Both the position numbers and the translations under genes were made by a program. DNA of 64,000 nucleotides from a virus. The notes under the pieces are model-generated. The model had not been told where the DNA came from and did not search any database. It saw only the letters and a list, made by a program, of their open reading frames with translations. Shown piece after piece: positions 13,993-37,855 of the stretch. The stretch lies in the IMG/VR virus record IMGVR_UViG_3300044957_000729. One strand, 5' to 3'. The first letter of the stretch is position 1, and each line of letters starts with the position of its first letter.

Positions 13993-15399
13993 ATGATCAT
14001 AGATATTGAGAATACAGGAAATGGATTATCTGTTTCACATTATACAGAGGAAGGAGAAGTTAATTTATTGAAAATTCAGGTACCAAAGCATCTACAATTT
14101 GTTTGGCAAAAAACATTGGAGAACGACAAAAGTAAAGATAAGGAATGGAGGTCGTGGGACAATTTTCCTGTGAAGAAAGTTAACACTAGTAAGTTTGACA
14201 AGTATAGGGTGGTAGAAATATTAGAAGCTATAGATCCTGAAATAACAAAACCCCTTTGGGATTACCAAACTCCAAAAAAATACTTTGTCGATATAGAGGT
14301 TGAAATCACGGATAATCGTGCAGATTCTTTAGATAATGAAAACTCTAAGAACCGGGTGCTTTCAATAGGAATGGCTTCTTCACAGGGAAAGATCCTTGTT
14401 ATTGGACTTGAAGATATTCTTCAGGATAAAATATTAAAAATAGAGAAAAGGATAAAGGAGCACTTTAAAGATCAAGCAGGGGAATGGACTTTTAATTATA
14501 GGAAGTTTGAGACTGAGTTTGATATGCTTTATACTTTCTTCTCTAAGCTAGTTCCTAAGATGCCTTTGATAACTGGGTGGAACTGGTTTGGATATGACTG
14601 GCCTTATCTTATCAATAGAGCAAAAAGATTAGGAATAGATCCAAAAATAGCTTCACCTAGTGGAATTCTCTTAGGAATGAATCAGATTCCGATGCACATT
14701 TTAATGGTTGACTATCTTGACATCTATAAGAAATGGGATAGGGTCATAAAGATCAGAGAATCTAACTCATTAGACTACGTTGCTAATCAAGCTATAGGAA
14801 TAAAAAAGATTTCTTATAGTGGAACATTAAAAGATTTATACGAATCAGATTTTGAGACATTTATCTTTTATAACGCAGTCGACTGTGCTTTAGTCCATTA
14901 TATAGATAAAAGGTTGGACACCCTTTCAACTTTCTTTAAAATTGCCGAAGTTAGTAGAGTGGAAATAAACAGAGCTTTATCCCCGGTATGGACTACTGAG
15001 GTACTGATGCTAAGAAAATTCTTGGAAAGAAAAAGAGTTATTGTCAACGAGAGAAAAGGAGAATCTCATGTAAAGTTTGAGGGAGCTTATGTTAAGAAGC
15101 CAGAGAAGGGATTATACGAATGGATTGCTTGTTTTGACTTTGCCTCCCTATATCCTAATACAATGATGCAATGGGGAATTTCTCCTGAGGCTTACATAGG
15201 AAAAAATCTAAAGGAAATACCTGAAGGAGCAATAAAGACCTCCTCGGGAGCAGTTTTTTATAATAAAGATGGGCAAGAACCTATACTTAGAGAAATATTG
15301 AAAGGACTTTATTCTCAAAGAAAAGCTACTAAGAAAAAATATTTTGAGTGTGAAAAGGAAATAGAAAAAATTAAAAAAGAAATAAAATTAAAATCATAA
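13993..15399 (+). CDS. polB: Family B DNA polymerase, N-terminal subunit (3'-5' exonuclease, motif A, first fingers helix)
   Basis: ExoI DIEVE, ExoII GWNWFGYDWPY, ExoIII YNAVD, motif A FDFASLYP; stops before motif B. Confidence 0.9.
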   Translation: MIIDIENTGNGLSVSHYTEEGEVNLLKIQVPKHLQFVWQKTLENDKSKDKEWRSWDNFPVKKVNTSKFDKYRVVEILEAIDPEITKPLWDYQTPKKYFVDIEVEITDNRADSLDNENSKNRVLSIGMASSQGKILVIGLEDILQDKILKIEKRIKEHFKDQAGEWTFNYRKFETEFDMLYTFFSKLVPKMPLITGWNWFGYDWPYLINRAKRLGIDPKIASPSGILLGMNQIPMHILMVDYLDIYKKWDRVIKIRESNSLDYVANQAIGIKKISYSGTLKDLYESDFETFIFYNAVDCALVHYIDKRLDTLSTFFKIAEVSRVEINRALSPVWTTEVLMLRKFLERKRVIVNERKGESHVKFEGAYVKKPEKGLYEWIACFDFASLYPNTMMQWGISPEAYIGKNLKEIPEGAIKTSSGAVFYNKDGQEPILREILKGLYSQRKATKKKYFECEKEIEKIKKEIKLKS

Positions 15400-15402
15400 A
15401 TT

Positions 15403-15867
15403 ATGGCAAACACAGATAACAAATGTTCAGATCTTTCGGTGGAGGATTTTTACACGGGGTCTGAAGACACTTTAGGATTAGTTTACAACAAACAAAAAGA
15501 ACTCCAGGAAAGGTATGGGTTCGATTTCAAAGATTGGTCTATCAAACAGATATCAGATTTTTGGATGGTCAATAAGCACGCACTTGGTGATGAACTAAAT
15601 GAAATGTTCGATGCACTGGGAGGAATTAACGATGGTATAGGATCTGCTGGTTGGAAATACTGGAAAGGCGACAACAAAAAAACAGAGACTATGAAAATCT
15701 CAGATCTTTCAGAAGCTGACAAGTTGGAGCTATATTATGAGTGGATAGACGGATTACATTTTTATATGAACTTCGCTATTTCTATTGGTATGACAAGTAA
15801 GGATATTGTTAATCTTTATATGTCTAAACATAAAGAAAATCATAGAAGACAGGATTCAGGATATTAA
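15403..15867 (+). CDS. Dimeric dUTPase / T4 gp56-like dCTPase
   Basis: QKELQ...ELNEMFDALGG...WKYWK...YEWIDGLHF...ENHRRQDSGY. Confidence 0.75.
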   Translation: MANTDNKCSDLSVEDFYTGSEDTLGLVYNKQKELQERYGFDFKDWSIKQISDFWMVNKHALGDELNEMFDALGGINDGIGSAGWKYWKGDNKKTETMKISDLSEADKLELYYEWIDGLHFYMNFAISIGMTSKDIVNLYMSKHKENHRRQDSGY

Positions 15868-15902
15868 AATACAGATTCTCGTATTTCTTTGATATATAAA
15901 AA

Positions 15903-16765
15903 ATGAAAGCTTTTGTATATCTTTGGACTAATAGTAAAAATCTTATGTTGAATCTCATATAGGAGATATGGATGATGGATACATAGGATCTGGTAAATAT
16001 TTTATTAATTCATATAATAAAAATCCTGAATTTTTTTCAAGAGAGATATTGGAGGTTATAGAAGGTCCATACGTAAAGGAAAGAATAAAAGAAAGATAGG
16101 AATATTATTTAGATCTTTATAAGGTTTCAAAAGATCCTCTATATTATAACATAAGTAATAGGTATTTTGGAGGCGATGTTTATTCTGGATTAAGCGAGGA
16201 GGATAAAAAAAATATGATTAATAAAACAGTCGAAAAAACTAATGAAGATAGAATTAATAATCCGGAAAAATGGAAAATGATATACAGTAAAATGTCCAAA
16301 TCAAAAAGGGATAAATCATTACCAGTTAATCAGTTTGATAGTGAAGGAGTATTTATTAATTCTTATTCATGTATAGAAGAAGCACATGAAATAACTGGAA
16401 TATCTAAAGGAAATATCCATTCCGCTATAACAGGTAAGAGAAATAGTGCAGGTGGATTTAGATGGTCGTTTACAAAAGAACCGAATAACATTGTTAGTAA
16501 AAAATGTGGAAGGCCTAATGGAATTAAGAATAAGATTAAGATTGAAAGATCACATACTAATATAAGAAAAATGCAGGTAACTCAATATGATTTGTTTGGT
16601 AATTTAATTAAGATTTGGGAATCAGCATCCGAAGCATCTAAAGAATTGGCCCTAAGCTCCGGATGTATAACACATTTTGTTAATGGAAGAAAACCAAAGT
16701 CTGGAAACTATGGTGGATTTATATGGGAAAAAGGAAATTATATCACATATACTATATACGAGTAA
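15903..16765 (+). pseudogene. Decayed Seg-like GIY-YIG homing endonuclease with NUMOD1 repeats
   Basis: MKAFVYLWTN, frameshift near 15938, SYVESHIGDMDDGYIGSG, in-frame TAG at 16097, then the 16214 ORF with two NUMOD1 motifs. Confidence 0.8.
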
Positions 16766-16796
16766 TAAAATAATATTAATATATAAAATAAAAAAA

Positions 16797-17777
16797 ATGG
16801 AAAAATTATTGACACCCAATCCTAAAAGATTCTCGTTGTTTCCCGTTCAACATCACGACATGTGGACAATGTATAAAACAGCTGAAGCATCTTTTTGGAC
16901 AGTAGAAGAAATAGATCTAGCTCAAGATATAACACACTGGAGAGATAAATTAAACGATAACGAGAGATATTTTATTAAGCATGTAATTGCTTTCTTTAAT
17001 AACTCCGATGGAATTGTAAATGAAAATTTAGCTGCAAACTTTTTTAATCAAGTACAATATCCAGAGGCAAGATGCTTTTATGGATTCCAATTAGCAATAG
17101 AGAACATTCACGGAGAAACGTATTCTCTTCTTATTGATTCCTATATAAGAGACGGAGAAGAAAAGGAACATCTATTTAATGCTATTGATACTGTTCCCTC
17201 AGTCAAAAGAAAAGCTGATTGGGCTATGAAATGGATAGAGAAAGGGTCATTCATAGAAACATTAATTGCTTTTGCTGCTGTGGAAGGAATCTTCTTTTCT
17301 GGATCATTTTGTTCCATCTTCTGGTTAAAGAAAAGAGGACTAATGCCAGGACTATGTTTTGCTAATGAACTAATATCTAGAGATGAAGGATTACATTGTG
17401 ATTTTGCTTGTTTACTTTACACTAGTCACATCGAAAACAAACTTCCAGAAGAAACAGTTGTCAAGATAATTAGTGAAGCTGTAGAGATCGAAAAAGAGTT
17501 TGTTACTTCATCATTACCTGTAAGACTTATTGGAATGAACTCTGAGCTTATGTGTCAATATATAGAATTCGTTGCTGATCGTTTGCTAATTTCTTTAGGG
17601 TGTAATAAGATTTATAATAATAAATGTCCTTTTGATTTTATGGTTAACATAGCCCTTGAAAACAAAGGTAACTTCTTTGAAGGAAGAGTGGGTTCATACC
17701 AAAAATCCGGTGTTATGGACAGTACTAAAGACAATAAAGATTCTGGTAAATCCTTTACTATGGATGCTGACTTTTAA
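16797..17777 (+). CDS. nrdB: Ribonucleotide reductase class Ia beta subunit
   Basis: [37 protein letters not shown]. Confidence 0.95.
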
Positions 17778-17828
17778 TTTGGTAACAGATCCCCAATTGA
17801 ATATATATAAGGCATATAATTAACAACT

Positions 17829-18155
17829 GTGGCTCAGAAAACTAGATCTCAATTTAAAGTAATATTTTCCCAAGGAAATATCCTAAATCAACAGGATTTC
17901 CATGACTTTATAGATAGTTATTGGAACTTGCCCGATGATGGTTCTTTTACTGGGATAACTGGGCCTTCTGGACCTACCGGACCTACTGGATATGGTGTTC
18001 AAGGAGCAACCGGGCCAACAGGTGACACGATGTTAACATCAGTTCCTGGTGCAACCTCAACAACTGGAACAACTGGAAATTATGCAGCTGGTTCCGGAGC
18101 TTTCTATTTTCATGACGGCTCCCAATGGTGGAAGGTTAACGGTACAGGATTTTAA
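17829..18155 (+). CDS. Small collagen-like (G-x-T) fibre/adaptor-type protein
   Basis: N-terminal [11 protein letters not shown] motif, GPTGPTG repeats, [11 protein letters not shown]. Confidence 0.55.
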
Positions 18156-18263
18156 TTTTTATTTGTATCATAAATACAGATACACAAAGCTCACAATTCT
18201 TAAAAAATATTAAAAGAATCGAAACTAACTGTCGACTAAAAAATAAAAAAATAAACTTGTAAA

Positions 18264-20630
18264 ATGGAAGTAATAAAAAGAGATGGCTCTAGGGAAAGAG
18301 TGAAACTAGATAAGATTCTTAACCGAGTTAAAAAGCAGTGTTATGGATTAAATATGGACTATATAGAGACGATGGAGATAGCAAAAAAGGTTATACATGG
18401 ACTTTATGATGGAATTACTTCCGTAGAATTAGATACATTAGCTGCTGAAACTGCTGCAGCATTAACCCCTACACATCCAGACTACTCTATATTGGCTTCT
18501 AGGATTTGTGTTACATCCTTACATAAAAGAACTCCAAAAAGTTTTTCCCTAGTTATTGAGCAACTCTATAATTACATTGATCCTAGAACAGGATTGAAAG
18601 CACCTATGATTGCTGATGATGTCTACGAGATCATCATGAATAATTCAAAAGATATAGATTCTCAAATAATAACTGATAGAGATTTGGAATATGATTATTT
18701 TGGGTTCAAAACTCTGGAAAAATCATATCTATTAAAAATAGATGGTCTTCCAGCAGAAAGACCACAGCAAATGTTAATGAGAGTAGCGATAGGAATTCAT
18801 AAAAATGATTTGACCTCTGCTTATAAGACATACGATTTAATGAGTCAGGGATATTTTACTCACGCAACACCTACATTGTTTAACTCTGGTACTAGAAGAC
18901 CACAGCTTTCTTCTTGTTTTTTAGTTTCAATGGATGATGATTCGATCCGGGGAATTTATAAAACTCTTTCGGATGTAGCTCATATTTCTAAGAATGCAGG
19001 AGGTATTGGATTACACATACACAACGTAAGAGGTACAGGAGCTTACATTAGAGGCACTAACGGAACATCTAATGGTATTATCCCGATGCTTAAGGTGTTC
19101 AATGAGACTGCAAGATATGTTGACCAGGGGGGAGGAAGAAGAAAAGGATCCTTTGCTGTTTATTTAGAGCCTTGGCATTGTGACGTTGAAGATTTTTTAA
19201 ATCTTAGAAAAAATCACGGTAAGGAAGAAATGAGAGCTAGAGATCTTTTCTTGGCTTTATGGACGCCTGATTTATTTATGGAGAGAGTAAGAGAAAACGG
19301 GGATTGGACGTTATTCTCACCAGACGAAGCCCCTGGATTAGATGACTGCTATGGAGAGGAGTTCAATAAGCTTTATACTAAATATGAATCTGAAGGAAAG
19401 GGTAGAAAAACTGTAAAAGCTCAAGATCTATGGTATAAAATTATAGAGGCACAGATAGAAACTGGAACACCTTATATTCTCTACAAGGATTCTGCTAACG
19501 GTAAGTCAAATCAAAAGAATTTAGGTACAATTAAATCATCTAATCTTTGTACGGAAATTATAGAGTACTCAGATGCTAAAGAAACTGCAGTTTGTAACCT
19601 TGCTTCCATTGCCCTTCCTAAATTTATTATACCGGGTAAGAAACCTAAGTATGATTTTAATGCACTCAAAGATATAGCATATACGGCTACAATAAATCTT
19701 AATAGAGTAATAGATGTTAATTATTATCCTACTAAGGAGACCAAGACTTCTAATATGAAGCACAGACCTATAGGTATAGGCGTACAGGGATTAGCAGATA
19801 CTTTTGCTATATTAAAAATACCTTTCGATTCTGAAGAAGCTAAGCAATTAGATAGAGAAATGTTTGAAGCAATATATTATGGTGCTATGTGTGCTTCTGT
19901 CGATCTTGCAGAGAAAGAGGGAGCATACCAATCTTTTAAAGGATCTCCTCTATCTAAAGGATTATTTCAATTTGATCTATGGGATGAAAAACCTAGTACA
20001 AGGTGGGATTGGGAGGAATTAAGAGAAAAAGTTAAAACACATGGTGCTAGAAACTCTTTATTACTTGCACCAATGCCTACTGCATCGACTAGTCAGATTC
20101 TAGGTAACAATGAATGTTTTGAACCTTTCACTTCTAATATCTATATTAGAAAAACACTATCTGGAGAATTTCCAGTAGTTAATAAACATCTTGTTAAAGA
20201 TTTAGTTAAGCTTGGATTATGGAATGAATCATTAAGGGATAAGATTATTATTAATAACGGATCAGTTCAGGATATACCAGAAATACCAGAGGAACTTAAA
20301 TCTATCTACAAAACTGCTTGGGAAATGAGTCAGAAGATTATAATAGATCACGCTGCTATTAGGTCTCCGTTCATCTGTCAGAGTCAGAGTATGAATCTTT
20401 TTGTACAGGATGCTAATTTTGCTAAACTATCTTCAGCACATTTTTATGGGTGGTCTAAAGGGTTAAAAACCGGAAGCTATTATATCAGAACTAAAGCTGC
20501 TTCAACAGCTATAAAGGGATTAGGGATAGATACTAGTAAAACAGAGGACATAAAAACGGAGGAAGACAATTATAGCGATCTAGTTTGTAGTATTGATAAT
20601 CCTGGAGATTGTAAAGCCTGTGGATCATAA
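18264..20630 (+). CDS. nrdA: Ribonucleotide reductase class Ia alpha subunit with ATP cone
   Basis: [39 protein letters not shown]-terminal CxxC. Confidence 0.97.
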
Positions 20631-20638
20631 ATAAAATT

Positions 20639-21295
20639 ATGGATAAAAAGAATAATCCTAAGAAAATAAACAACTTCAAAGAATTCGTAAAAGAATTTGG
20701 AGACATTGACGGCAAGGAAAATTTAGAAGATATACCTTGTATAATTTTAACTGGTCCTCCTGGATGCGGCAAAGGTACACAGTCAAAGATAATATCTAAG
20801 GGTATGAGATGGAAACACGTTTCTACCGGCGATATATTAAGAGCTTCTGATGACAGGGATATTAAAAAGATGATGAAGAACGGAGAGTTACTTCCTGATG
20901 AATTAGTAGGAAAGGAACTAATTGCATATCTCAAAGACTACTCTAAGCATCACGATCCTAAGGGATTTATATTTGATGGTTATCCAAGAAATCTTGCACA
21001 GAGAGATATTTTTGAAGAAATATGTAGGGTAAACAAATTAAAGCTCGTATATATTTTCTTTTTAAACGGACCTGAAGATTTATTAAAGAAGAGAATTATT
21101 AACCGAGGTAAATCTTCGGGAAGATCAGACGACAAAAGCGAGAAAGCTTTTGAGAAAAGAATGAAAGAATATAACGAGCAAACCCTTCCCATGATAGAAT
21201 CAATGAGGAATGGAGGAAACTTCCTAGAGATATCTGCCACTAAGGATCTTGAGGGGGTTTCTTCTTTAATATTTAAGAAATTGAATGAAATTTAA
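20639..21295 (+). CDS. adk: Adenylate kinase with capsid-targeting-like N-terminal extension
   Basis: GPPGCGKGTQ, HVSTGDILR, FDGYPR, RSDD; extension KINNFKEFVKE. Confidence 0.9.
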   Translation: MDKKNNPKKINNFKEFVKEFGDIDGKENLEDIPCIILTGPPGCGKGTQSKIISKGMRWKHVSTGDILRASDDRDIKKMMKNGELLPDELVGKELIAYLKDYSKHHDPKGFIFDGYPRNLAQRDIFEEICRVNKLKLVYIFFLNGPEDLLKKRIINRGKSSGRSDDKSEKAFEKRMKEYNEQTLPMIESMRNGGNFLEISATKDLEGVSSLIFKKLNEI

Positions 21296-21343
21296 TTTAT
21301 AAAATAGTCTATAACTATTAAAAAACAATTAAAAAACAATAAA

Positions 21344-22576
21344 ATGGATAATGTCGAAAAAGAATCCCCTGTTGAGAATCAGGAAATAAATCAACCAACC
21401 CAGCCAACTATCTGTTTAACTATGATAGTTAAAAACGAATCTCAAGTAATTAGAAGATGTATAGATTCGGTAAAAGATTATATCAGCTATTGGGTTATTG
21501 TAGACACAGGATCTACTGACGGAACACAAGATCTCATTAAAGAAATCATGGCTGAGTATAACATTCCCGGGGAACTACACGAAAGACCTTGGGTTGATTT
21601 TGGACACAATAGAACTGAAAATCTACGATATGCCAAGGATAAGGCAGATTACCGATTAATAATAGATGCGGATGATGTACTTGTCGTTGAAAATCCTGAA
21701 GTTAATCCATTCTTAAATGTAACCAAGGATTTCTATAAAATAAAAATAAGACTAGGTTCATTAGCATATTATAGATCCCAACTAATTAGAGGGGATCAAG
21801 ATTGGAAATATGTTGGTGTTTTACACGAATATCTTTCTGGACCAGAAGACATGGATCTCGAGGAGGACTTTTTAGAAGGGGTAGAAATGCACGCTTCAGT
21901 TTCGGGACACAATAGAGACATTAAAGGTAAAGACAAATACTATAATGATGCTTTAATTTTCGAAAAGGCTATTTTAACTACCACAAAAGAAGAACTTCCT
22001 ATAGATTTGGAAAGAAGATATGTCTTTTATATGGCACAAAGCTATAGAGATGCTGGAATGCACGAAAGATCTATCGAAGCTTATCAAAGAAGAGCTGATC
22101 TAGGAGGATGGAACGAAGAAGTTTATATTTCCAAATATTGGATTGCTAGACAAAAGCAGACAATGCAAAAACCCGACGAGGAAATAATTGATGCTTATTT
22201 AAAAGCTTGGGAATACAGACCAAATAGACTTGAATCATTATATCACCTTATTAAATTCCTGGGGAGCAGAAAGAGATATGCTTTAGCTTTTGCTCTATCT
22301 TCAATAGGAATGAAAACTGGACCATGCTCAGATATCCTTTTCGTCGAAGATGAAATTTGGAAATGGAGAATGCCTGATGAATATTCAGTACTTGCTTACT
22401 ATAACGGAAATGCAGAGGAAGCACGTAAGACTACAAGTATTATAATTAATTCCCCAGTATTCCAAAAAATAACTAAGGGTGAGCAAGATAGAATCCTTAA
22501 GAATTTGGATTTCTATAAAAAAGCTATAGACCGAAATACAGAAGAAGAGCCTAAAGAGGAATTACAGGAATCTTAG
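21344..22576 (+). CDS. GT2-family glycosyltransferase with TPR-like C-terminus
   Basis: ICLTMIVKNES, VDTGSTDGT, IDADD, GVLHEY. Confidence 0.85.
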   Translation: MDNVEKESPVENQEINQPTQPTICLTMIVKNESQVIRRCIDSVKDYISYWVIVDTGSTDGTQDLIKEIMAEYNIPGELHERPWVDFGHNRTENLRYAKDKADYRLIIDADDVLVVENPEVNPFLNVTKDFYKIKIRLGSLAYYRSQLIRGDQDWKYVGVLHEYLSGPEDMDLEEDFLEGVEMHASVSGHNRDIKGKDKYYNDALIFEKAILTTTKEELPIDLERRYVFYMAQSYRDAGMHERSIEAYQRRADLGGWNEEVYISKYWIARQKQTMQKPDEEIIDAYLKAWEYRPNRLESLYHLIKFLGSRKRYALAFALSSIGMKTGPCSDILFVEDEIWKWRMPDEYSVLAYYNGNAEEARKTTSIIINSPVFQKITKGEQDRILKNLDFYKKAIDRNTEEEPKEELQES

Positions 22577-22609
22577 GAAATGTAGATATATAACATAAAA
22601 AGTTATATA

Positions 22610-23092
22610 ATGAGAATTCTAAGATTTGCGGATTTTTTAAATGAGTCTGTTTATAACGTAGGAATTCCTCTTTACAGAGGATCTAGCTTCCAACCAGAAA
22701 GAACAATAAAAAGAAATAAGTTTATTGGGGAGCTTCAGGATTTCCTTACTCAAGTTGCTAACGGTACACTTTCCGAAATCACAGTAATAGCTGAAATACC
22801 AACACAAGGTAAGAATGTGCCACAATATCTAAAAGATATTTATGCTGAAATGGGATATGATCCTAGCGAAAATCAGGAAGATATGTATGACCCTGAGACT
22901 GATGTTTACATGGGAAATAGAAGCAGAACAGCAGATGAACCTTATAGAAATATATTTGTAGACTCGGAGTTTATTGTTAAAGATGTTGATCAAACAAAAG
23001 GAGTTATTATTGCAGTTCCTTATTCTTTAAAAAGAAAGAATGTTACTGTAGAATTAACACCTGATATGATTGACGAGGCTTACGTTAAATAA
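22610..23092 (+). CDS. Hypothetical protein with capsid-targeting-like N-terminus
   Basis: MRILRFADFLNES; GATATATA at about 22585. Confidence 0.6.
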   Translation: MRILRFADFLNESVYNVGIPLYRGSSFQPERTIKRNKFIGELQDFLTQVANGTLSEITVIAEIPTQGKNVPQYLKDIYAEMGYDPSENQEDMYDPETDVYMGNRSRTADEPYRNIFVDSEFIVKDVDQTKGVIIAVPYSLKRKNVTVELTPDMIDEAYVK

Positions 23093-23110
23093 TTTAGCAC
23101 TTACTAACAT

Positions 23111-26509: not shown

Positions 26510-26541
26510 AGTTATCTAACAATAAGTAGATATATACAAAG

Positions 26542-27288: not shown

Positions 27289-27302
27289 TTTAGCTTTATA
27301 GT

Positions 27303-28423: not shown

Positions 28424-28563
28424 TGCTTATGTTATTGTTATTAAAAAGGATATCTTTTATGGCTCTTGCTTTAGCTAGCGGGTTTTTTATCTATGCTCTT
28501 TTATTTCTGATAGAGTTTTCCAAAATAATTTCTTGTATTTTTTATTCTTTTAAAAAACATTAA
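28423..28563 (+). CDS. Small hydrophobic (membrane) protein, 46 aa
   Basis: MLMLLLLKRISFMALALASGFFIYALLFLIEF...; TAATG coupling to the upstream gene. Confidence 0.35.
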   Translation: MLMLLLLKRISFMALALASGFFIYALLFLIEFSKIISCIFYSFKKH

Positions 28564-28565
28564 AG

Positions 28566-29603
28566 TTGATTAATTACTACGAAATTTTAGGCGTCCAAGA
28601 AAATGCCGGCCAGGAGTCTATAAAGAAAGCTTACCGACAAATGGCTAAGAAATTCCATCCGGATCGAAACAGGGATCAAGGAGCGGAAGAAAGGTTTAAG
28701 AAAATTACTGAGGCTTATGAAAACATAGGGGATCCTACTAAAAGGAGAGAATATGATAATAAAAGAAATTTTAAAGATCATTTCTTTGGCGGCTTTGAAA
28801 ATTTTAATAGCTGGAATCAAAAAGACCCTTTTGCAAGTCACTATGATCCCGAATTTCATCAAGATCCTAAAGGAGGACACATTAGTATCACACTAAAAGT
28901 GACGCTCGAGGATGTGTTAAACGGAGTTGAAAGGAGAATCAAATTAAAGAGAGATAGAAAGTGTAAATGTTGTGAAGCCACAGGAGCTGAGGGGAGTAGA
29001 TCTTTTCAAACCTGTGGTGCATGTAATGGAACTGGACAAATTACAATAAATAAAACCAATGGATTTGTGCAGATCAATTCTGTTACAGTTTGTAATGTTT
29101 GTAGAGGTAACGGAAAAACCATACTAGAATATTGTATGAGTTGTCTAGGAAAAGGATTGATAGCGGAGGAGGATTTAATTGATATAAACATACCCGCAGG
29201 ATCTTCGGATGGAATGCAATTTGTAGTGGCAAATAAAGGAAACGACGGTAAAGGAAACGGATTACCGGGGGATCTTTATGTGAAGATAAGCGAGATCGAA
29301 GATGAAAATTTTGTGAGAAGGGGGATTGATCTTATATCAGCAAAACAAATAACCTTCATAGACGCTGTTCTTGGAACTAATATAGATGTTGAAATGCCGG
29401 ACGGGGAAGAATTGAAAGCTATTATTTCTCCTGGTACAATTCCTGGTACTATCCTTAAATTTTCTCAAAAAGGAATACCTAATATGGGATACGGTGGCAG
29501 AGGAGATTTCTTAGTGGAAATAAATGTAAAGATTCCTTCTGATCTTAATAAGGAAGAGATAAGATTCATGGAGGAGTTAAGAGAGTATGATATGTTTAAA
29601 TAA
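28566..29603 (+). CDS. dnaJ: DnaJ co-chaperone
   Basis: J-domain HPD, four CxxCxGxG-type repeats, C-terminal domain GDLYV. Confidence 0.92.
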   Translation: MINYYEILGVQENAGQESIKKAYRQMAKKFHPDRNRDQGAEERFKKITEAYENIGDPTKRREYDNKRNFKDHFFGGFENFNSWNQKDPFASHYDPEFHQDPKGGHISITLKVTLEDVLNGVERRIKLKRDRKCKCCEATGAEGSRSFQTCGACNGTGQITINKTNGFVQINSVTVCNVCRGNGKTILEYCMSCLGKGLIAEEDLIDINIPAGSSDGMQFVVANKGNDGKGNGLPGDLYVKISEIEDENFVRRGIDLISAKQITFIDAVLGTNIDVEMPDGEELKAIISPGTIPGTILKFSQKGIPNMGYGGRGDFLVEINVKIPSDLNKEEIRFMEELREYDMFK

Positions 29604-29612
29604 ATTTAACTA

Positions 29613-29939
29613 ATGACGAATTTCTTTTTTTATATACTTGCAGTTTGGGGACTAACTCACATACTAGTAGCATCCAAAATAATGGAACCCACTAGAAATT
29701 GGCTTCTTATAAACGCTCCTTTTTTTGGAGATATGCTTAATTGCTACCAGTGCACTTCCTTTTGGTCATCTATGATTTTATACTTTATGTTTAATGATTT
29801 AAGTGTGGGTGGCCTTTATTTTTATCTTAATGAAATCAAAATAGGATTCGATTTCTTATTAATTTCTTTTATTGGATCTGGTATAGTGTCATTTATATCT
29901 ATAATAATGTCAATCCTGATAAATAAATCTAAAGGATAG
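29613..29939 (+). CDS. Membrane protein, DUF1360-like
   Basis: Hydrophobic helices with LNCYQCTSFW. Confidence 0.55.
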   Translation: MTNFFFYILAVWGLTHILVASKIMEPTRNWLLINAPFFGDMLNCYQCTSFWSSMILYFMFNDLSVGGLYFYLNEIKIGFDFLLISFIGSGIVSFISIIMSILINKSKG

Positions 29940-29956
29940 GTTTTGATATATACATT

Positions 29957-31462
29957 ATGGAAAGAAAAGTATTATCATTTAGCCAATTTTTAAATGAAGA
30001 AGAAACCGGAATAACCGGAGCCACGGGATCTTCGGATTCAGGAAATCTAGGTAGACCAGAAACTGAAAGGGAAGCAAAGTCGAGGATCGCAAAAAATATA
30101 GTACAATCTGTTTTTGGTGGTATAGGAGGAAGCGGCGGGGTTGATAGTTATATCGATCAAACTAAAGAAGTAAAAGAATCTTTACCTTACAAAGGATGCG
30201 GAGTATCTGATCCATATAAATTAGAGAAGACTCCTCTCTCTGTAATGACTATTAAATTGCTTCTTAACTATTTACAAGAGAAAAAAGTTGGTGACTATAC
30301 GAGAGTTATAAACGAACTAAATGAGAAGAGAGCGGTAATAATTGGTATAAGAAATAGAATAGCAACAAAAAAAGAAAGCTCAAATCAAGATAGATTTTGT
30401 GATGCCTTATATTTCATACCAGGTAATGCAAAAGATGGAACCGAAAGTGCTGGCGCTACAGGAGCTACGGGAGCTACTGGAGCATCGTCTGGTTTTATGC
30501 AGCAAAAGAAAAATGAATCTCTGTCCCTTTACAACTACATAGAACAAAGAATAACGGAATTAGAAACTGTTTCTGAATCTGGACTTTGGACATTTGAGGA
30601 TTTTTCTCGGATGAATGAAGAAAGAGAATTTTTAATTAAAAATAGGGATCTTTTAGAGTCAGGAGAAATATCAGAGAATGATTTCTTAGAGTTATACGAG
30701 GATATCTTAGGAATAGGAGGATTTCTTAAAGGAGCTTGGGATAAAGGAAAACAAGCAGCTAACTGGGTAGGTAGGAAACTTGGATTGGTCGATGATAAAC
30801 CTAAAACTGGGAAAGTTGATATGGATAGCGAGGACAATACTAAATCTCCCTCACAACAACAATCTGGTGCTACCGGAACTACTGGACCAACACCCCCGTC
30901 AGACTTGGGGGATAAAATTGAACCCTATCAAATAACAACAGTTGCTAGCTTAGCTTACTATGGTAAAAAGCCTATGAATCCTAAAGGTGTAGGTATTAAG
31001 CTACCCGGGGATACTCTTTATGTATTGCAGGAAAGTACATTGGGAGGAAAAACTAAATATAAGATGATGGTGGAGGCCGAAAAAATTAAAGTAGGCCGAT
31101 ATCCTATAGGGGTTACTAAATATGAAACATATAAACCAGCTGAAACATACACTGAAAGCTGCGGAATGCAAATACATAGATCATCAACTAAAGGCGTAGG
31201 AGTTTGTATAGGACCTTGGTCAGCAGGATGCCAAGTATTTTCTGATTATACTGAATGGCAAGAATTTATATCTAAAGCTGAAAAGGAATCGATGAATGCC
31301 TCAAAATTCCTATATGGATTAATCCAACTGGACGACATACCAGAGGAAGTATTAAAGTCTGCAATAATCGGTTTACCATATAGTCCTCAACAAGAACAAC
31401 AACCTGTTGCCCAAAACAGATCTGGGAAAGACGTAAGAAAGGTCGGTTTCAGCGAGGAATAG
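29957..31462 (+). CDS. Capsid-targeted-like protein with an L,D-transpeptidase-like (H...SxGC) domain and GAT repeats
   Basis: MERKVLSFSQFLNEE; IIGIR, RFCD, GMQIHRS...WSAGCQVF. Confidence 0.6.
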   Translation: MERKVLSFSQFLNEEETGITGATGSSDSGNLGRPETEREAKSRIAKNIVQSVFGGIGGSGGVDSYIDQTKEVKESLPYKGCGVSDPYKLEKTPLSVMTIKLLLNYLQEKKVGDYTRVINELNEKRAVIIGIRNRIATKKESSNQDRFCDALYFIPGNAKDGTESAGATGATGATGASSGFMQQKKNESLSLYNYIEQRITELETVSESGLWTFEDFSRMNEEREFLIKNRDLLESGEISENDFLELYEDILGIGGFLKGAWDKGKQAANWVGRKLGLVDDKPKTGKVDMDSEDNTKSPSQQQSGATGTTGPTPPSDLGDKIEPYQITTVASLAYYGKKPMNPKGVGIKLPGDTLYVLQESTLGGKTKYKMMVEAEKIKVGRYPIGVTKYETYKPAETYTESCGMQIHRSSTKGVGVCIGPWSAGCQVFSDYTEWQEFISKAEKESMNASKFLYGLIQLDDIPEEVLKSAIIGLPYSPQQEQQPVAQNRSGKDVRKVGFSEE

Positions 31463-31489
31463 AAACTTTAATCCGGTATTCCAGTATAA
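31462..31489 (+). promoter_or_regulatory. Putative middle promoter class GAAA(C/T)-N16-18-TATAA, representative copy
   Basis: Copies at 13960, 21287, 24669, 31462, 40707, 49486(-) and 56843(-), several before replication genes. Confidence 0.55.
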
Positions 31490-31513
31490 TTTTCATCAGC
31501 GAAAATATTTTAG

Positions 31514-32074
31514 GTGGACAAAAGGATAACAATTTCAGATCAGATAAATCAGGATTACCGTAAGTACGCATTATACGTTATTCAAAGCAGGGGCATCCCG
31601 AATTTCTACGATGCACTAACCCCTGTACAAAGATTAATTCTTCAGAATTCCCCAAGCATTTTTAAAAAAACTGTTGGTGTTATAGGTGGGGTTTTTAGTA
31701 CTGGCCTATATCATCACGGAGACTGCGTTTCTGGGGATACAAAAATAGAATTGGCAGATGGGGGTCAGATTAGAATAGAAGACTGGTACGATAAAAATCC
31801 GGGTTGTGATCTTTTAGTTTCTTGTATAGATACAGATACAGGTGAAAAGACTTTTGGAGTTGGTCATTCACCTAGGATAGGACAAATTAATGACGAATTA
31901 ATTGAGCTCGAATTAGAGAGTTGCGAAATAATTAAATGTACTAGGAATCATCCCTTTTATGTAAATTCTACTTGGATTAAGGCCGAGGATCTTGAGGAGG
32001 GAATGGATATAAAAGATTTTTATCATCACGCTGGATATATAAATATAAACATCCATGATGATAAAGAAATGTAA
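31514..32074 (+). CDS. Topoisomerase II small (GyrA-like) subunit N-part plus IntN (31724-32071)
   Basis: YALYVIQSRGIP, DALTPVQR, YHHGD, then CVSGDTKI; block B CTRNHPF. Confidence 0.9.
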   Translation: MDKRITISDQINQDYRKYALYVIQSRGIPNFYDALTPVQRLILQNSPSIFKKTVGVIGGVFSTGLYHHGDCVSGDTKIELADGGQIRIEDWYDKNPGCDLLVSCIDTDTGEKTFGVGHSPRIGQINDELIELELESCEIIKCTRNHPFYVNSTWIKAEDLEEGMDIKDFYHHAGYININIHDDKEM

Positions 32075-32924
32075 ATCGTGCGGGAATGATTTTGAGTCAG
32101 ATCTAAATCTTAACCAGTATTGCACAACAAAATGTAGATCTCGGGATAAATTCTTCAAAATACAAAACGAGGGAAAGTCTTTTAATGTATGGAAAAAAAA
32201 TTACGAGAAATACCCCGAATTTTATAATTCCCTTTCTAGTTATAAAGATAGGTATAAGAATAAGTGCTTCATCTGCGGGAAAGAATATGAAAATTTTAGT
32301 ATGTGTTGCTCTAAGGAATGTTCTTTAGCAATGAAAAATTATTCTACTTTTTTAACTACTGGATCCAATCATAATTTATCTAGGAATTCAATATCAAGAA
32401 AGAATATGGAGAAATCTTTATATGAGAAATATGTTGTCAATAATGTTTTTTCTAGAGATGATGTTTTAAATAAGCTTAAGGAAACATGGGTTAAAAAATA
32501 TGGATATATTAATCTTTCTAAGGTTGATTATATAAAAAATAAAAAAAGATCAACTGCAGAAAAAAATGGATTTTGGGCTCCTAAAGAAACGATGGATTTA
32601 AAAAATATTTATGACGAGAACGTTTATAATATTACATGGAGTCAAATGAAAAGGTTTTCTACAATTAAATTTGGCAATGATATATGGAAAAAGATAAATG
32701 ATTCTAAAAATCTTAAACAATCTGAATGGCTTACAGTTGATCATAGATATTCAAGATCTAAAGGATTTATAGATGGTATATCTCCAGAAATAATAGGACA
32801 TATATGTAATCTTGAGATTATTAATTTCGGGGATAATCGTAAAAAAAATAGTAAATGCTCGGTTACAATGGACCAATTAATCAAGGAGATAAATGAATTT
32901 GATAAAATAGTTTATAAAAAATGA
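32055..32924 (+). CDS. Free-standing HNH-type endonuclease with Zn-finger and KYG repeats, between the topoisomerase intein halves
   Basis: CKSC/CTTKC, CFIC/CSKEC, TVDHRYS...HICNLEII...NRKKNSKC. Confidence 0.75.
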   Translation: MMIKKCKSCGNDFESDLNLNQYCTTKCRSRDKFFKIQNEGKSFNVWKKNYEKYPEFYNSLSSYKDRYKNKCFICGKEYENFSMCCSKECSLAMKNYSTFLTTGSNHNLSRNSISRKNMEKSLYEKYVVNNVFSRDDVLNKLKETWVKKYGYINLSKVDYIKNKKRSTAEKNGFWAPKETMDLKNIYDENVYNITWSQMKRFSTIKFGNDIWKKINDSKNLKQSEWLTVDHRYSRSKGFIDGISPEIIGHICNLEIINFGDNRKKNSKCSVTMDQLIKEINEFDKIVYKK

Positions 32925-34243
32925 GGATAAAGAAAATTAATAGGATAAAGTTAGAATCCCCTTCTGCTTTTTATGATATTACTGTAGAAAAATATCACAA
33001 TTTTATCATAGGTGACTCGAAAATAGTTTGTCATAATTCATCAATGGCTCAAGCAATATCCAAACTTGCGAGACCTTTTTCTTGTGCTGAACAGATATTA
33101 TTGGGTGATGGATTTTTTGGAAGTCCAGTTAATCCTGTACCTTCAGCTCCTAGATATACTCAGGTAAAGATCTCCAGTAAATACAAAGATATAATAGAAA
33201 AATATAAGGATCTAAATGTTCCCAATGAGGAGGGTGGATTTGATTGGATCCATGTTGACTATCCTGTGGGTCTTTCCACTCACATTGTTGGGATAGCAGT
33301 TGGATATAAGTCTAATGTGCTTCCCCGAAAGCCTGAAGACATAGTTGCATACTTAACTGGAAATAAATCTAAGAAATTAAAACCATATTTTAGAGGATTT
33401 AAAGGAAAGGTAACAAAAATGGATTCTCTTAAATCTGCTTGGCTTATAGAAGGGGACACTGAAATAGATGTTACAACTAGAACATTCAAGATAAACTCTA
33501 TATCACCCCTTCAGAGATATGAATCTTTTTTTATTAGGCTCAACAACATTCTGGAAAGAAAATCCCTTAATTACAAGATGGATAATTTCTCAACTGATGA
33601 AGTTAAGATCACGATAAAGTTTAGATGCACAGATCAGGAATTTAAGGAAGTCTCAGATCTAATAGCTAAAGAAACAAAACAGATAGTTACTGAAAATATA
33701 GTTTTCGTGCGGGACGGATCAGTCTTGGAATATGATTGTATAGAAGATTATTTAGAAGACTTCATTGTACACAGGGAAAGAACTATTTTAAAAAGATATG
33801 AGAGGGATCTACTTTATCTTGACGATGAATTAGAATTCTTGGAAGCCAAGGTTAAATTTCTTATTTTTATGCAGGAAAAGAAGAGAGGTGATGATGAGGT
33901 TTCAGCATTTCTTAGTGGTTATAAAAAGGAAATATCCAGAAGACTAGAATCCATATCTTTAATAAAGCTAACAAAAGAGGAAATAATTAAGACAAAAGAA
34001 GAAATTAATTCCATAAAATCCGATATAAAGATTAAGAACCAAGAAATAAAGAAACAAAGGGATAGAGTTAAAGTTGTTGAAAAAGAAAATTCTTTATTAA
34101 AAAAGAAAACGACTTCAAGAACAACTTCACTCTTAGGAGAAGTAAAAGAAGAATTTCATAATGGAATAAGAATATTTGATCCAGAAGAAGAAATAATAGA
34201 AGAAGTAGAACAAGAAAACGAATTAAATATAGAAAATGAGTAA
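32921..34243 (+). CDS. IntC (39 aa, 32921-33037) plus topoisomerase II small subunit C-part with the catalytic Tyr
   Basis: MRIKKINRI...FYDITVEKYHNF...VCHN/S. Splicing restores YHHGD-SS. Also GFFGS, APRYT, GIAVGY. Confidence 0.9.
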   Translation: MRIKKINRIKLESPSAFYDITVEKYHNFIIGDSKIVCHNSSMAQAISKLARPFSCAEQILLGDGFFGSPVNPVPSAPRYTQVKISSKYKDIIEKYKDLNVPNEEGGFDWIHVDYPVGLSTHIVGIAVGYKSNVLPRKPEDIVAYLTGNKSKKLKPYFRGFKGKVTKMDSLKSAWLIEGDTEIDVTTRTFKINSISPLQRYESFFIRLNNILERKSLNYKMDNFSTDEVKITIKFRCTDQEFKEVSDLIAKETKQIVTENIVFVRDGSVLEYDCIEDYLEDFIVHRERTILKRYERDLLYLDDELEFLEAKVKFLIFMQEKKRGDDEVSAFLSGYKKEISRRLESISLIKLTKEEIIKTKEEINSIKSDIKIKNQEIKKQRDRVKVVEKENSLLKKKTTSRTTSLLGEVKEEFHNGIRIFDPEEEIIEEVEQENELNIENE

Positions 34244-35003
34244 GAAACAAGCAACTTTGAATTTTAGGATTACTAATCCTACCAATTTTATGTCTTTCCT
34301 TAAAAAATTAAAATTGGTAGACAAAAGCGTTCCTTTAGAAATAGAAGGAGGAAATTTATTTGCTAAAGTTAGAACCCCTGACAAATCTGTTTTAAAATAT
34401 GTGAGCGTAGATATCAATGAAATACTGGAGGGAGACTTTCCTCCAAATAGATTAAAAATAGGTATTCTTGAGATAAGTAAGTTAATCGATGTTTTTAAAT
34501 ATTTTGGGCCGGAAGAAGAACTTAACTTGACAGTTGATTCCCAGTCTTATGATTCAGATCTAATCGCAACGGGATTAAAATTCTCTTCCTCATCATTAAA
34601 CATATTTGTTAAGTGTGCAGATATAAGTTTACTTGCTTATATAGACGATAATATACAAAGACAGATACATTCAACTGAAGGATCGCAAGTTAATTTTGAA
34701 ATATCAAAAGAAAACTTCCAAAAAGTATCTTTATTAACGGGAATAGAATCTAACTCTGAAGAACTACTAAATTTTGATATCGAAGAAAACGGGGTGACTA
34801 TCAGAGGAAATTCATTCCAATACAATTTAATAAAAGGCAAAAAGCCTAATGGATTTTCTAGCTCTAGTGTTTATACAATCTACAAAAACCAATTCTCTTA
34901 TATAGATCAGGAAAATTCGGAGATACACTTTCATGACAATAGAATATTAGTTAAATCAACGGAATCAGATTCTATAATAGCAATAGGTTTAGTAGAGGTA
35001 TAA
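34236..35003 (+). CDS. Sliding clamp (gp45/PCNA-like)
   Basis: 255 aa, IGILEISKLIDV segment, directly upstream of the polymerase gene. Confidence 0.6.
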   Translation: MSKKQATLNFRITNPTNFMSFLKKLKLVDKSVPLEIEGGNLFAKVRTPDKSVLKYVSVDINEILEGDFPPNRLKIGILEISKLIDVFKYFGPEEELNLTVDSQSYDSDLIATGLKFSSSSLNIFVKCADISLLAYIDDNIQRQIHSTEGSQVNFEISKENFQKVSLLTGIESNSEELLNFDIEENGVTIRGNSFQYNLIKGKKPNGFSSSSVYTIYKNQFSYIDQENSEIHFHDNRILVKSTESDSIIAIGLVEV

Positions 35004-35004
35004 T

Positions 35005-35727
35005 ATGGAAGAAGTAGATTACATGTCAATGAGCTTGGAAGAGCTCAATAAAAAACTGCAGGAATATCAACAAAAATCCTCCGACTTTTATAACACTGAA
35101 CAAGGTATTAAATTAACTCTTAACAGTATATATGGAGCGACAGGAAACCAGTACTTTGCACTTTTCAATCCCGATGTAGCAGAAAGTGTAACTCTACAAG
35201 GACAGGACATATGGAGATTTGCTGAGAAGATAATTAACAAGTACTTCACCGAGATGTGGCACCTTGATAGTGAATTACACGAAAAAATGGGGGTCGCTAA
35301 TGTTAGGCCTCTAAATTTAGATTTTGTTGTCTACGGGGATACTGATTCGGTTTTTTCCAGATCTAAGATAATGATAATGAATAACTTGGGTGAAAAAAAA
35401 GAAATTGAAATTGGGGAATTTTTTAATGAATTAGCTGAATCGGAGGATATTTTATTAGACGATAAGGGTAATCATATTATAGAAACAAAAGGGTTTTTCT
35501 CGCTTAATTCAATTGATGAAGAATTAAGATATTCCCCGATAAAAAAAATAATAAGACACAAAGTAAGAAAGCCTAAATGGAAAATAACTACAGAATCTGG
35601 TAAAGAAGCTATAGTAACTAATGACCACTCCTTGACTGTTTTTAGATTCGGTAAAAAAATTCATATTAAGCCTTCTGAAATAAATTTAGAAACTGATAAA
35701 ATTTTATCAGTTGATGCTGATATATAA
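35005..35727 (+). CDS. polB: DNA polymerase B second subunit, N-part (motif B to YGDTD) plus IntN (35347-35724)
   Basis: KLTLNSIYG, VTLQGQ, YGDTD, then SVFSRSKI; block B VTNDHSL; ends ADI-stop. Confidence 0.9.
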   Translation: MEEVDYMSMSLEELNKKLQEYQQKSSDFYNTEQGIKLTLNSIYGATGNQYFALFNPDVAESVTLQGQDIWRFAEKIINKYFTEMWHLDSELHEKMGVANVRPLNLDFVVYGDTDSVFSRSKIMIMNNLGEKKEIEIGEFFNELAESEDILLDDKGNHIIETKGFFSLNSIDEELRYSPIKKIIRHKVRKPKWKITTESGKEAIVTNDHSLTVFRFGKKIHIKPSEINLETDKILSVDADI

Positions 35728-35744
35728 TATATAAAAAATATTAT

Positions 35745-36887
35745 ATGGAGACGCAAATATTGAAGTCGTTGGTTAAAAGGTATAATAAAGAAAGAACCCG
35801 TGAAAATTGGGATCTTTTAGAAACTCATATAGAGGATAAGCATTTTTGTAAGGACTGTGGTGGATCTATATTTTATGAGAATTCGGTAATTAGAGTTTCT
35901 AGGGAAGGTTCTTTATATTATGATCCTACTATGACCTCTTGTAAAACATATAAAAAAATAGAGGATAGTATTTACTATCTAAATGTTTGTCGGGATTGTA
36001 TTGGTAAGAAGTTCCCAGAATATCTTAAAATGAATCGATCCAGAGTTTTCAATGTGATGAATAAAATTACTATATACGCTTTTGATATTCCAGAATATGA
36101 GGCTAAAAAATTTACCAAAACCACTGCAGTAACGCTAGAAAACTTAACTAATAAATATGGAGAATCAGAGGGATTAAAAAGATGGGAAAGATATAGAAAA
36201 TTACAATCTCTAACAAATACTTTTGAATACAAGAAAGAAAAATATGGGTGGGGAGAAAAAGAATTCAACGATTTTAATAAATCACGTGCAGTTACTCTTA
36301 AAAATATGATTAAAAAATATGGGGAAGAGAAGGGGGTCCGCATTTTTAATGAATACCTAGAAAAACAAAAGGTCAACGGAAAATCAATTTCTTGGTTCTT
36401 AGAAAAACACGGGGAGGAGATAGGTAGAAGAATTTTTAAAGAAATGCTACAAGGTAAGCTAAAAGGCATTAACTGTGTTGTAAATTCTAAACCAGCGGGA
36501 GAATTTTTTGCTAGAATTGAAAATCTTCTTGAAGATAGATTTGAAATTTATTATTTTAATAAAAATTTCGAATTTGAAGTTGTAATAGAAGAAATCGGAA
36601 ATGTTTATTATCTCGATTTTTTTATTAAAGAATTAAATGTTTGTATAGAATTTTTCAGTGATTATTACCATGCTAATCCAAAAAAATATAAAGATCCTGA
36701 GGCACTAATTAAATTTTCTAGGATTCATAAGGTTTCTGAAATTTGGGATAGGGATAAAAAAAGAATTCAAAATCTTGAAAAATATAAAGCAATAAAAACT
36801 ATAGTAGTTTGGGAATCCGACTATTATAAAAACAAAGATAACGAGGATTTTTACAAGAAAATAATTAAACAATGTATAGAGAAATAG
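35745..36887 (+). CDS. Free-standing Vsr/DUF559-like endonuclease between the PolB intein halves
   Basis: CKDC zinc motif, KYGESEG/KYGEEKG repeats, YLDFFIKELNVCIEFFSDYYHANP...VVWESD. Confidence 0.8.
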   Translation: METQILKSLVKRYNKERTRENWDLLETHIEDKHFCKDCGGSIFYENSVIRVSREGSLYYDPTMTSCKTYKKIEDSIYYLNVCRDCIGKKFPEYLKMNRSRVFNVMNKITIYAFDIPEYEAKKFTKTTAVTLENLTNKYGESEGLKRWERYRKLQSLTNTFEYKKEKYGWGEKEFNDFNKSRAVTLKNMIKKYGEEKGVRIFNEYLEKQKVNGKSISWFLEKHGEEIGRRIFKEMLQGKLKGINCVVNSKPAGEFFARIENLLEDRFEIYYFNKNFEFEVVIEEIGNVYYLDFFIKELNVCIEFFSDYYHANPKKYKDPEALIKFSRIHKVSEIWDRDKKRIQNLEKYKAIKTIVVWESDYYKNKDNEDFYKKIIKQCIEK

Positions 36888-37855
36888 AGTACCAATCAAA
36901 ATTTGAAAAGATTAAATCGTGTGAATGTATTGGTGAGTTCGAGAATGATTATGTTTACGATTTAGAGATTGACGAGGAGGGATATGACAATCAAACTTTC
37001 TTTGCTAATCACATTTTAGTTCATAATTCCAATTACATAAATCTTGGTGCTGTTATGGATTCTTGTGAATTTGATTATGATCCTTTTGATTTTGTAAAAA
37101 ATTTAAATGACTATAGACTTAAGGACTATATAAAGAAGTGCTATGACATCTATGCTAAAAAATGGAATACTGAGAACTATCAAGACTTTGAACTGGAAAG
37201 TTTATCTTATGCAGGTATATTCTTAGGAAAAAAGAAATACGTACTTCACATAGCTTGGGAAGACCCAAACAAGGATCTATTTCCCAAGCTATCTAAAATT
37301 AAATCAACCGGTATAGAACTAGCTCAAGGAGGTACTGCTCCTTTTGCAAGGGAAAAACTTACTTTCCTTCTTAGACACATATTTGAAAAGGGTAAAGGGT
37401 TTGATATTAGGGAATTTGTAAAGATACTGAAGGATATCAAGAATGAATTCAAAGTACAAAGTCCAGATCAAATATCAATAGGTACTTCAGTTAACAATAT
37501 AGAAAATTTCATAGTAAATGATACAAGTAAATTAGAAGTTGCTAAGGGATGTCCAATGCACGTTAGAGCTGCTGGGTATCATAACTATATCTTGAATAAT
37601 TCTAAACACAAAGCAAAGTACAGCTTGATAAGATCCTCGGAGAAGATAAAATACTATTACGTTAAAGTTAACAAAGAAAGGGAGAATAACGTATTCGGAT
37701 ATCTTAATGGTTCTTATCCCTACGAGTTTGCTCCCCCGGTCGATTTTGACGAGCAGTTTAATCGTGTTATCCTGGATCCAATAAATAGATTCATTGAAGC
37801 TATGGGATATACCCCACTTTCTCCTAATCTTTTACTAGTTAGAGCTCTTTTTTAA
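36872..37855 (+). CDS. polB: IntC (52 aa, 36872-37027) plus DNA polymerase B palm/thumb
   Basis: YVYDLEI...FFANHILVHN/S. Splicing restores YGDTD-S. Also KKKY, KSTGIE, PMHVRAA. Confidence 0.9.
   Translation: MYREIEYQSKFEKIKSCECIGEFENDYVYDLEIDEEGYDNQTFFANHILVHNSNYINLGAVMDSCEFDYDPFDFVKNLNDYRLKDYIKKCYDIYAKKWNTENYQDFELESLSYAGIFLGKKKYVLHIAWEDPNKDLFPKLSKIKSTGIELAQGGTAPFAREKLTFLLRHIFEKGKGFDIREFVKILKDIKNEFKVQSPDQISIGTSVNNIENFIVNDTSKLEVAKGCPMHVRAAGYHNYILNNSKHKAKYSLIRSSEKIKYYYVKVNKERENNVFGYLNGSYPYEFAPPVDFDEQFNRVILDPINRFIEAMGYTPLSPNLLLVRALF

Follow-up and report, generated by a model that had tools for sequence, protein, structure and literature searches.

A predicted three-polypeptide family-B DNA polymerase of a huge uncultured phage, divided by a split intein at motif C and by an intein-free break at the finger tip

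How can a replicative DNA polymerase that is encoded in three separate genes, one of them far from the other two, yield a single working enzyme? This question is raised by a locus in the 64,000-nucleotide stretch of DNA analysed here (hereafter, the window), which is part of the 148 kb IMG/VR virus record IMGVR_UViG_3300044957_000729. The record is metagenome-derived, has a G+C content of approximately 33%, and belongs to a huge uncultured phage. The locus consists of four co-oriented open reading frames (ORFs), namely three polymerase pieces and an endonuclease gene that lies between the second and third pieces. These pieces very probably constitute the replicative family-B (T4 gp43-type) polymerase of a huge phage related to the Lak phages and PTm1, which is predicted to be assembled from three polypeptides by protein trans-splicing and non-covalent association.

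Piece 1 (13993-15399, + strand) encodes a gp43A-like subunit of 468 amino acids, which comprises the N-terminal domain, the 3'-5' exonuclease, the part of the palm that contains motif A, and the first fingers helix. It matches PF03104 and PF00136 in Pfam and aligns with residues 187-500 of RB69 gp43 (E 8e-28). The exonuclease motifs Exo I (FVDIEVE, 98-104), Exo II (GWNWFGYD, 195-202), and Exo III (FYNAVD, 292-297) satisfy the DxE, NxxxFD, and YxxxD patterns of family B, and motif A reads DFASLYPN (382-389). The structure of piece 1 was modeled by AlphaFold2 (AF2) with an alignment of 44 homologues and compared with the PDB using Foldseek; here and below, the fold evidence consists of models of single pieces. 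The top matches were RB69 gp43 chains (TMq 0.64-0.71, best approximately 0.70). The last helix is unbroken over residues 431-467 in the model (mean pLDDT 86.5) and corresponds to the first fingers helix of RB69 gp43, which in piece 1 carries R443/K447. The C-terminal end, ..EKEIEKIKKEIKLKS, is located at the finger tip.

Piece 2 (35005-35727, 240 amino acids) starts with MEEVDYMSMSLEELNKKLQE. Its residues 1-114 (35005-35346, + strand) are the N-extein, which holds the second fingers helix with motif B (KLTLNSIYG, 36-44) and the palm up to the YGDTD of motif C (110-114), immediately followed by S115. Pfam detects PF00136 in this piece also, residues 9-133 align with RB69 533-641, and the first helix of the model (residues 11-43) leads into motif B. 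These features agree with the original prediction, which had described an exonuclease, motif A, and a basic tail in piece 1, and an acidic head followed by motif B to YGDTD in piece 2. Residues 115-240 and the stop codon (35347-35727, + strand) form the N-half of a split intein, which matches PF14890 and PDB 9hth_A (E 9e-9) and is modeled as a beta-rich fold over residues 121-221 with pLDDT values of 83-88.

Piece 3 (36872-37855, 327 amino acids) begins with the C-half of the intein (residues 1-52; 36872-37027, + strand), which matches PF14890 and the PolB16 intein (PDB 8cpo) and ends with ILVHN. The C-extein (residues 53-327; 37028-37855, + strand) consists of the Ser+1 residue that completes YGDTDS, the remaining palm, the thumb, and the C-terminal tail (..LLLVRALF), with the KKKY motif at residues 120-123. 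Within one locus, the two intein halves thus face each other from the ends of two gene parts that run in the same direction. When the motif definitions of class 1 Ser1/Ser+1 inteins are applied (PMC10189870), all splicing residues are intact: Ser1 (S115), motif NX (R184-H185), and block B (T205-N-D-H208) in piece 2, and H51-N52 and S53 in piece 3. They are also conserved across the alignments of homologues. Strong purifying selection acts on each of the three extein parts: against close relatives, the omega values (Nei-Gojobori method) of piece 1 (compared with relative L010), the N-extein, and the C-extein are 0.047, 0.065, and 0.010, respectively. The dS values are high or saturated for all three parts, and saturated for the C-extein.

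The splice junction is fixed by relatives that have no intein, because they match the N-extein and the C-extein exactly. Dozens of close relatives, whose exteins are 82-95% identical to those of the window, encode a 389-residue protein with ..YGDTDSNYINLGAVMDSCEF.. at the junction. The intein-free protein reads ..YGDTDSNYINLG.., which is exactly 114 + 275 residues; the N-extein is collinear with its residues 1-114, and the C-extein with its residues 115-389 (88-95% identity). In relative L019, from which the intein N-half is absent, the DNA of the empty site reads ..GATACTGAT|TCCAAC.., and the window has a 1681-bp insert at that point. Judged from these alleles, removal of the element restores a contiguous host gene. 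Continuous-intein forms of 554-568 amino acids also exist, and the C-terminal subunit thus occurs in three states among the relatives: intein-free, with a continuous intein, and fractured. With the 389-residue relatives and the complete set of splicing residues, the earlier claim that pieces 2 and 3 are one gene split by an intein at motif C is borne out.

The break between pieces 1 and 2 falls between positions equivalent to RB69 ~500 and ~533, at the tip of the fingers domain with its two helices. In RB69 numbering, the end of piece 1 corresponds to ~500-505, and the start of piece 2 comes before ~533. In single-chain relatives, the order of piece 1 followed by pieces 2 and 3 is preserved collinearly, and a variable loop is all that lies at the break. 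Pfam detects no intein at this junction, neither in piece 1 nor in the piece 2 head, and a PF14890 scan of the record gives none there. A degenerate intein was also considered and rejected; the 24-residue tail of piece 1 and the 29-residue head of piece 2 are helical and align to the finger tip of the single-chain relatives. The position, the terminal helices, and the collinear relatives all support an intein-free split of the gp43A/gp43B kind, as originally proposed.

The original prediction further described the two chains as a coiled-coil heterodimer with a basic and an acidic helix. The mean net charge is +2.6 over 44 piece 1 tails and -2.6 over 37 piece 2 heads. Because single-chain relatives show the same basic/acidic pattern, the two charged ends derive from the fingers hairpin itself and are no peculiarity of this phage, and charge complementarity as an adaptation to the split was rejected. 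In family-B polymerases, as exemplified by the RB69 structure, the two fingers helices run antiparallel as a hairpin, and sequences on both sides of this hairpin contribute to the palm. Therefore, the interface should be much larger than two helices, and the term coiled-coil heterodimer appears too narrow.

Based on this anatomy, the following assembly is proposed. Piece 1 would contribute the N-terminal domain together with the proofreading exonuclease, motif A of the palm, and the first of the fingers helices. The two other pieces would be translated separately, and their intein halves would associate and trans-splice in vivo by the class 1 Ser1/Ser+1 route, joining ..YGDTD to SNYINLG.. to give a gp43B-like chain of 389 residues. 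This chain would carry the second fingers helix (motif B), motif C, KKKY, the thumb, and the C-terminal tail. It would then bind piece 1 non-covalently, with the fingers helices packed as an antiparallel hairpin and the palm completed by both chains, and the assembled enzyme of 857 residues is expected to be active. We infer the association from the RB69 architecture, the co-purification of gp43A and gp43B of phage 25 (PMC2988022), and the activity of a split Pfu polymerase (PMC3061061). The finger-tip split would be old and fixed in the phage group. The intein and the free-standing endonuclease, which are present or absent among close relatives, would represent a recent mobile insertion.

Three observations weigh against this assembly. 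First, the record is approximately 51% complete (CheckV), and a second polymerase elsewhere in the genome is possible. Second, model confidence is low where the partner chain should pack (residues 357-367 of piece 1, and 39-65 and 109-117 of piece 2); low-confidence regions at a partner surface fit a dependence on the partner and prove nothing. Third, the wild-type PolB1 intein of Aes123 splices only ~30% in vitro (10.1101/2025.01.22.634254). The last point also favours a three-subunit enzyme that forms without splicing, in which the intein halves splice poorly or serve only to tether piece 2 to piece 3, and the intein stays in place in the working polymerase. We consider such an enzyme unlikely, because Ser1, R184-H185, TNDH, HN, and Ser+1 are intact and conserved, and because an insert of ~180 residues at YGDTD|S, within the catalytic motif C, would be expected to obstruct the active site. 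In addition, close relatives function with the exact spliced sequence.

The incompleteness of the record, together with the heavy invasion of this genome by homing elements (three fractured genes), could instead be taken to mean that the pieces are decaying remnants broken by mobile elements, and that the phage is replicated by a polymerase encoded in the unsequenced half of its genome or by that of its host. This is very unlikely, because omega is 0.01-0.07 for each of the parts, no catalytic motif is disrupted, and the lengths and the break point are conserved over hundreds of clusters. Apart from these pieces, there is no PF00136 match in the ~51%-complete record, and no Pol III alpha was found in its 148 kb. 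The complete genomes of Lak-A1 and PTm1 have a single place for each piece and no further PolB. A single-chain PolB elsewhere, with the pieces inactive, was one of the outcomes that the original prediction had named as decisive against itself; none is present in the sequenced half, and the selection on the three parts speaks against their inactivity.

It is extremely unlikely that pieces 1 and 2 are joined covalently by RNA trans-splicing, by a cryptic split intein, or by translational bypass. An Rfam scan of the whole window gave no intron or other RNA family, and RNA splicing as a link between the two pieces was rejected on this ground; no intein signal is present at either end. The genes are tightly packed at both ends: the gene downstream of piece 1 begins 4 nt past its end, and the ATG of piece 2 lies 1 nt beyond the stop codon of the upstream ORF, behind a GAGG sequence. 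Because of this packing and the lack of an Rfam match, joining at the RNA level is not plausible. In Lak-A1 and LR756504, the two halves are 220-280 kb apart on opposite strands, and gp43A and gp43B of phage 25 are separate, co-purifying polypeptides (PMC2988022). That the distance between the genes reflects a chimeric or misjoined contig is hardly conceivable even for a metagenome-derived record, because independent assemblies from other samples (L010, L011, L012, and L019) share the gene order of the window on either side of the gap, and piece 1 is followed by a dUTPase gene also in the cultured phage PAU. The separation of about 20 kb noted in the original prediction measures 19.6 kb (from 15399 to 35005).

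The implied novelty of the arrangement does not stand, since existing annotations of Aeromonas phage Aes509 and Tenacibaculum phage PTm1 already show this three-piece layout. The GenBank entry of Aes509 (JN377902) lists gp43A, gp43B1 ('includes putative N-intein'), a 'putative VSR endonuclease', and gp43B2 ('includes putative C-intein'). The layout of Aes509 and Aes123 (JN377902 and JN377899) is identical to that of the window part for part, with a finger-tip split without an intein and a split intein at ..DTD|S. All six parts of the window are matched in Aes509, at 35% identity for the endonuclease, 33% for the N-half and 50% for the C-half of the intein, and 24-31% for the exteins. The mobile parts are more alike than the exteins, a pattern that horizontal homing is expected to give. 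The Aes123 PolB1 split intein, which is homologous to the window intein, trans-splices in vitro (10.1101/2025.01.22.634254). In contrast to the window, where 19.6 kb with ~20 ORFs intervene, gp43A and gp43B1 of Aes509 are 28 bp apart. Furthermore, the polymerases are only ~25% identical, the head of gp43B1 is ~60 residues longer, and the hosts of the element are T4-like Straboviridae in one case and Lak/PTm1-related huge phages in the other.

PTm1 (AP019524) is a cultured jumbo phage of Bacteroidota, and its corresponding genes are ORF236, ORF239 ('intein-containing split DNA polymerase precursor'), ORF240 ('VSR endonuclease'), and ORF241. The intein occupies the same site (N-half 47% and C-half 60% identical to those of the window), and the endonuclease is homologous. 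However, two hypothetical genes (~2 kb) lie between pieces 1 and 2 of PTm1, compared with 19.6 kb here.

Each of the two kinds of break is also known from other systems. Finger-tip-split PolB, with an intein-free break in the variable tip that joins the fingers helices, was reported for the T4-related phages 25, 31, 44RR, 65, and 133 (Petrov et al. 2006, 2010, as summarized in PMC3061061 and PMC2988022), and the co-purifying subunits of phage 25 are active (PMC2988022). The split genes of the T4-related phages are 2 bp to 3 kb apart and, as described in these papers, lack an intein. In contrast, the halves are 9-280 kb apart in the window, the Lak phages, and the phages with genomes of 460-735 kb, sometimes on opposite strands or in reversed order. 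An engineered Pfu polymerase with a single split at the finger tip is fully active (PMC3061061). Among archaeal enzymes with a single split, the halves of Methanothermobacter PolB are encoded 85 kb apart and divided in the palm, whereas those of Nanoarchaeum equitans PolB are joined by a split intein (PMC2677866, PMC3061061). The engineered and archaeal examples demonstrate that splitting is tolerated by family-B polymerases. Split inteins at GDTD|S, as in the window, are present in the Pseudomonas jumbo phage MIJ3/PA5oct (PMC6892783) and in PolB16 (PMC10189870), and the block G sequence GNNILVHNS is close to the ANHILVHNS of the window. MIJ3 differs in having an HNH endonuclease, and no finger-tip split was reported for it (PMC6892783); PolB16 is split atypically, with an N-intein of 15 amino acids (PMC10189870). 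Fractured genes and the associated family of Vsr-like endonucleases were defined by Dassa et al. 2009 (PMC2677866). In the available text of that study, Vsr-like endonucleases occur in half of the loci, control elements arrive with the endonuclease gene, and the fractured polymerase is DnaE, not a family-B enzyme.

Our literature search found no paper that discusses the three-piece layout as such, and the layout is present in public annotation. It is therefore already known, and what distinguishes the huge-phage lineage is the long and variable distance between the non-covalent halves. No new mechanism is involved, and the understanding of how such enzymes work is unchanged. The practical consequences concern annotation and protein engineering. 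Automatic annotation will label the three genes as fragments or partial polymerases and will miss that the phage has a complete replicase. The window intein adds another natural Ser1/Ser+1 member to the relatives of the Aes123 intein, which is used in protein engineering. Together with its Vsr-like endonuclease, the intein moves between polymerases of only ~25% identity.

The break at the finger tip is widespread. At a threshold of E <= 1e-20, 681 clusters are homologous to piece 1, and among the 120 matches listed almost all are 466-480 amino acids long, from contigs of up to 474 kb. In a survey of the best 150 matches among 1.8 billion cluster representatives at 50% identity, only 19 reached the length of at least 740 amino acids that was set for single chains, and most of the others (450-520 amino acids) end where piece 1 ends. 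The long matches are genuine collinear single-chain polymerases. One 757-residue protein (P0432) aligns with piece 1 and, beyond that, with no more than the first ~144 residues of the C-terminal chain; an N-intein may be present in it.

The same break is seen in LR756500, LR756504, Lak-A1, PTm1, PAU, MA9V-1, and Aes509. The halves are ~10.5 kb apart in LR756500 (462 kb), ~280 kb apart on opposite strands and without an intein in LR756504 (636 kb), and ~222 kb apart on opposite strands in Lak-A1; in Lak-B, piece 1 is located downstream of pieces 2 and 3. Shorter distances are found in PTm1 (~2 kb between pieces 1 and 2), Sphingomonas phage PAU (C-terminal half ~2.4 kb downstream), and Chryseobacterium phage MA9V-1 (~2.2 kb downstream). 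A two-subunit, finger-tip-split PolB is thus the usual state in a very large group of huge phages, to which the Lak megaphages and the phages with the largest genomes known belong.

In a quick FastTree tree of 153 N-terminal halves, which covers only half of the protein, all the phages of the preceding comparison of spacing, from LR756500 to MA9V-1, fall in one well-supported huge-phage clade apart from the gp43 proteins of T4-like phages and cyanophages. Single-chain forms are scattered in this clade, and its well-supported branches cannot be reconciled with fewer than 15 state changes among the 150 lineages (P0319-P0468). A single origin of the split was considered, and this tree does not support such a simple one-event history. 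We claim that the finger tip is labile in huge-phage PolB, as these sequences indicate, and make no claim about the direction of change.

It is conceivable, if doubtful, that the finger-tip split is maintained because separately encoded halves are useful and that it is not a neutral scar. If so, the exonuclease and catalytic halves could be regulated separately in timing or dosage, or a looser finger tip could accept unusual nucleotides, as does the engineered finger-tip-split Pfu polymerase (PMC3061061). In that case, selection and not drift would account for the scatter of single-chain forms and for the distances of 9-280 kb between the halves.

The gene between the intein halves (35745-36887, + strand) encodes a protein of 380 amino acids, and the last 16 nt of this gene overlap the beginning of piece 3. 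Based on its homology to proteins annotated by their depositors as VSR endonucleases, the product is probably a free-standing, Vsr-like homing endonuclease. It matches phrog_22677 (E 2e-44), and its homologues occupy the same position in Aes509 ('putative VSR endonuclease', 35% identity, E 3e-34) and PTm1 ('VSR endonuclease', 28% identity). Searches of Pfam, NCBIfam, and PDB sequences gave no significant match to an endonuclease family; only a weak one to PF18741 (E 0.011) was obtained, and the PTm1 ortholog has a weak match to DUF559 (E 0.12). The Vsr-type catalytic core comprises Asp, Phe-Trp-His, and Asp equivalents, and the C-terminal part of the window protein, ..LDFF..DYYHANP..WDRD..VVWES, may resemble the Vsr motifs. 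The homologue in Lak-A1 (L007, 5244-6284), which is 35% identical, contains two in-frame stops when read with translation table 11; either this gene is decaying, or the recoding used by the Lak phages affects it.

Just before the endonuclease gene, the motif GATATATA (35719-35726, + strand) overlaps the TAA stop codon (35725-35727) that ends the intein N-half. This motif has 24 copies in the window (659, 32034, 35719, and 21 other sites), compared with 6.75 expected, and one copy directly precedes each of the three free-standing nuclease genes. It looks like a phage promoter motif that arrived with the endonuclease genes.

The region between pieces 1 and 2 (15403-35003) is genomic context outside the enzyme and contains ~20 ORFs, which are on the + strand except at 23463-24623. 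Most are genes of replication and nucleotide metabolism. The region holds a dUTPase-like gene, a NUMOD1 endonuclease-like ORF, nrdB, nrdA, adenylate kinase, GT2, DUF192, topoisomerase II ATPase/Toprim, UvdE, DnaJ, a fractured topoisomerase II A subunit, and a 255-residue ORF. The dUTPase-like gene (15403-15867; 4464-4967 in L021) directly follows piece 1, and the same pair is found in Sphingomonas phage PAU (gp105 and gp106) and in close relatives. The NUMOD1-domain ORF (16214-16765) is located just before nrdB and is another present/absent homing element, because it is absent from the 88%-identical relative L010. The 255-residue ORF (34236-35003) is translationally coupled to piece 2 and occupies the same position in L019; no Pfam family matched it, and a faint match to the sliding-clamp model NF002218 was obtained (E 0.12).

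The polymerase is not the only gene fractured in this genome. The six PF14890 matches in the 148 kb record correspond to the three intein pairs of three fractured genes. The topoisomerase II A subunit (31514-34243) is divided by an intein, with the N-half at 31514-32074 and the C-half at the start of 32921-34243. An unclassified ORF of 289 amino acids (32055-32924) lies between these halves, and relative L019 has an intact gene of 470 amino acids. The third pair is located at 401-1623, with PF14890 matches at 401-664 and 1363-1623. At the other end of the window (58001-64000), the G+C content is 41-43%, compared with 28-38% elsewhere in the window.

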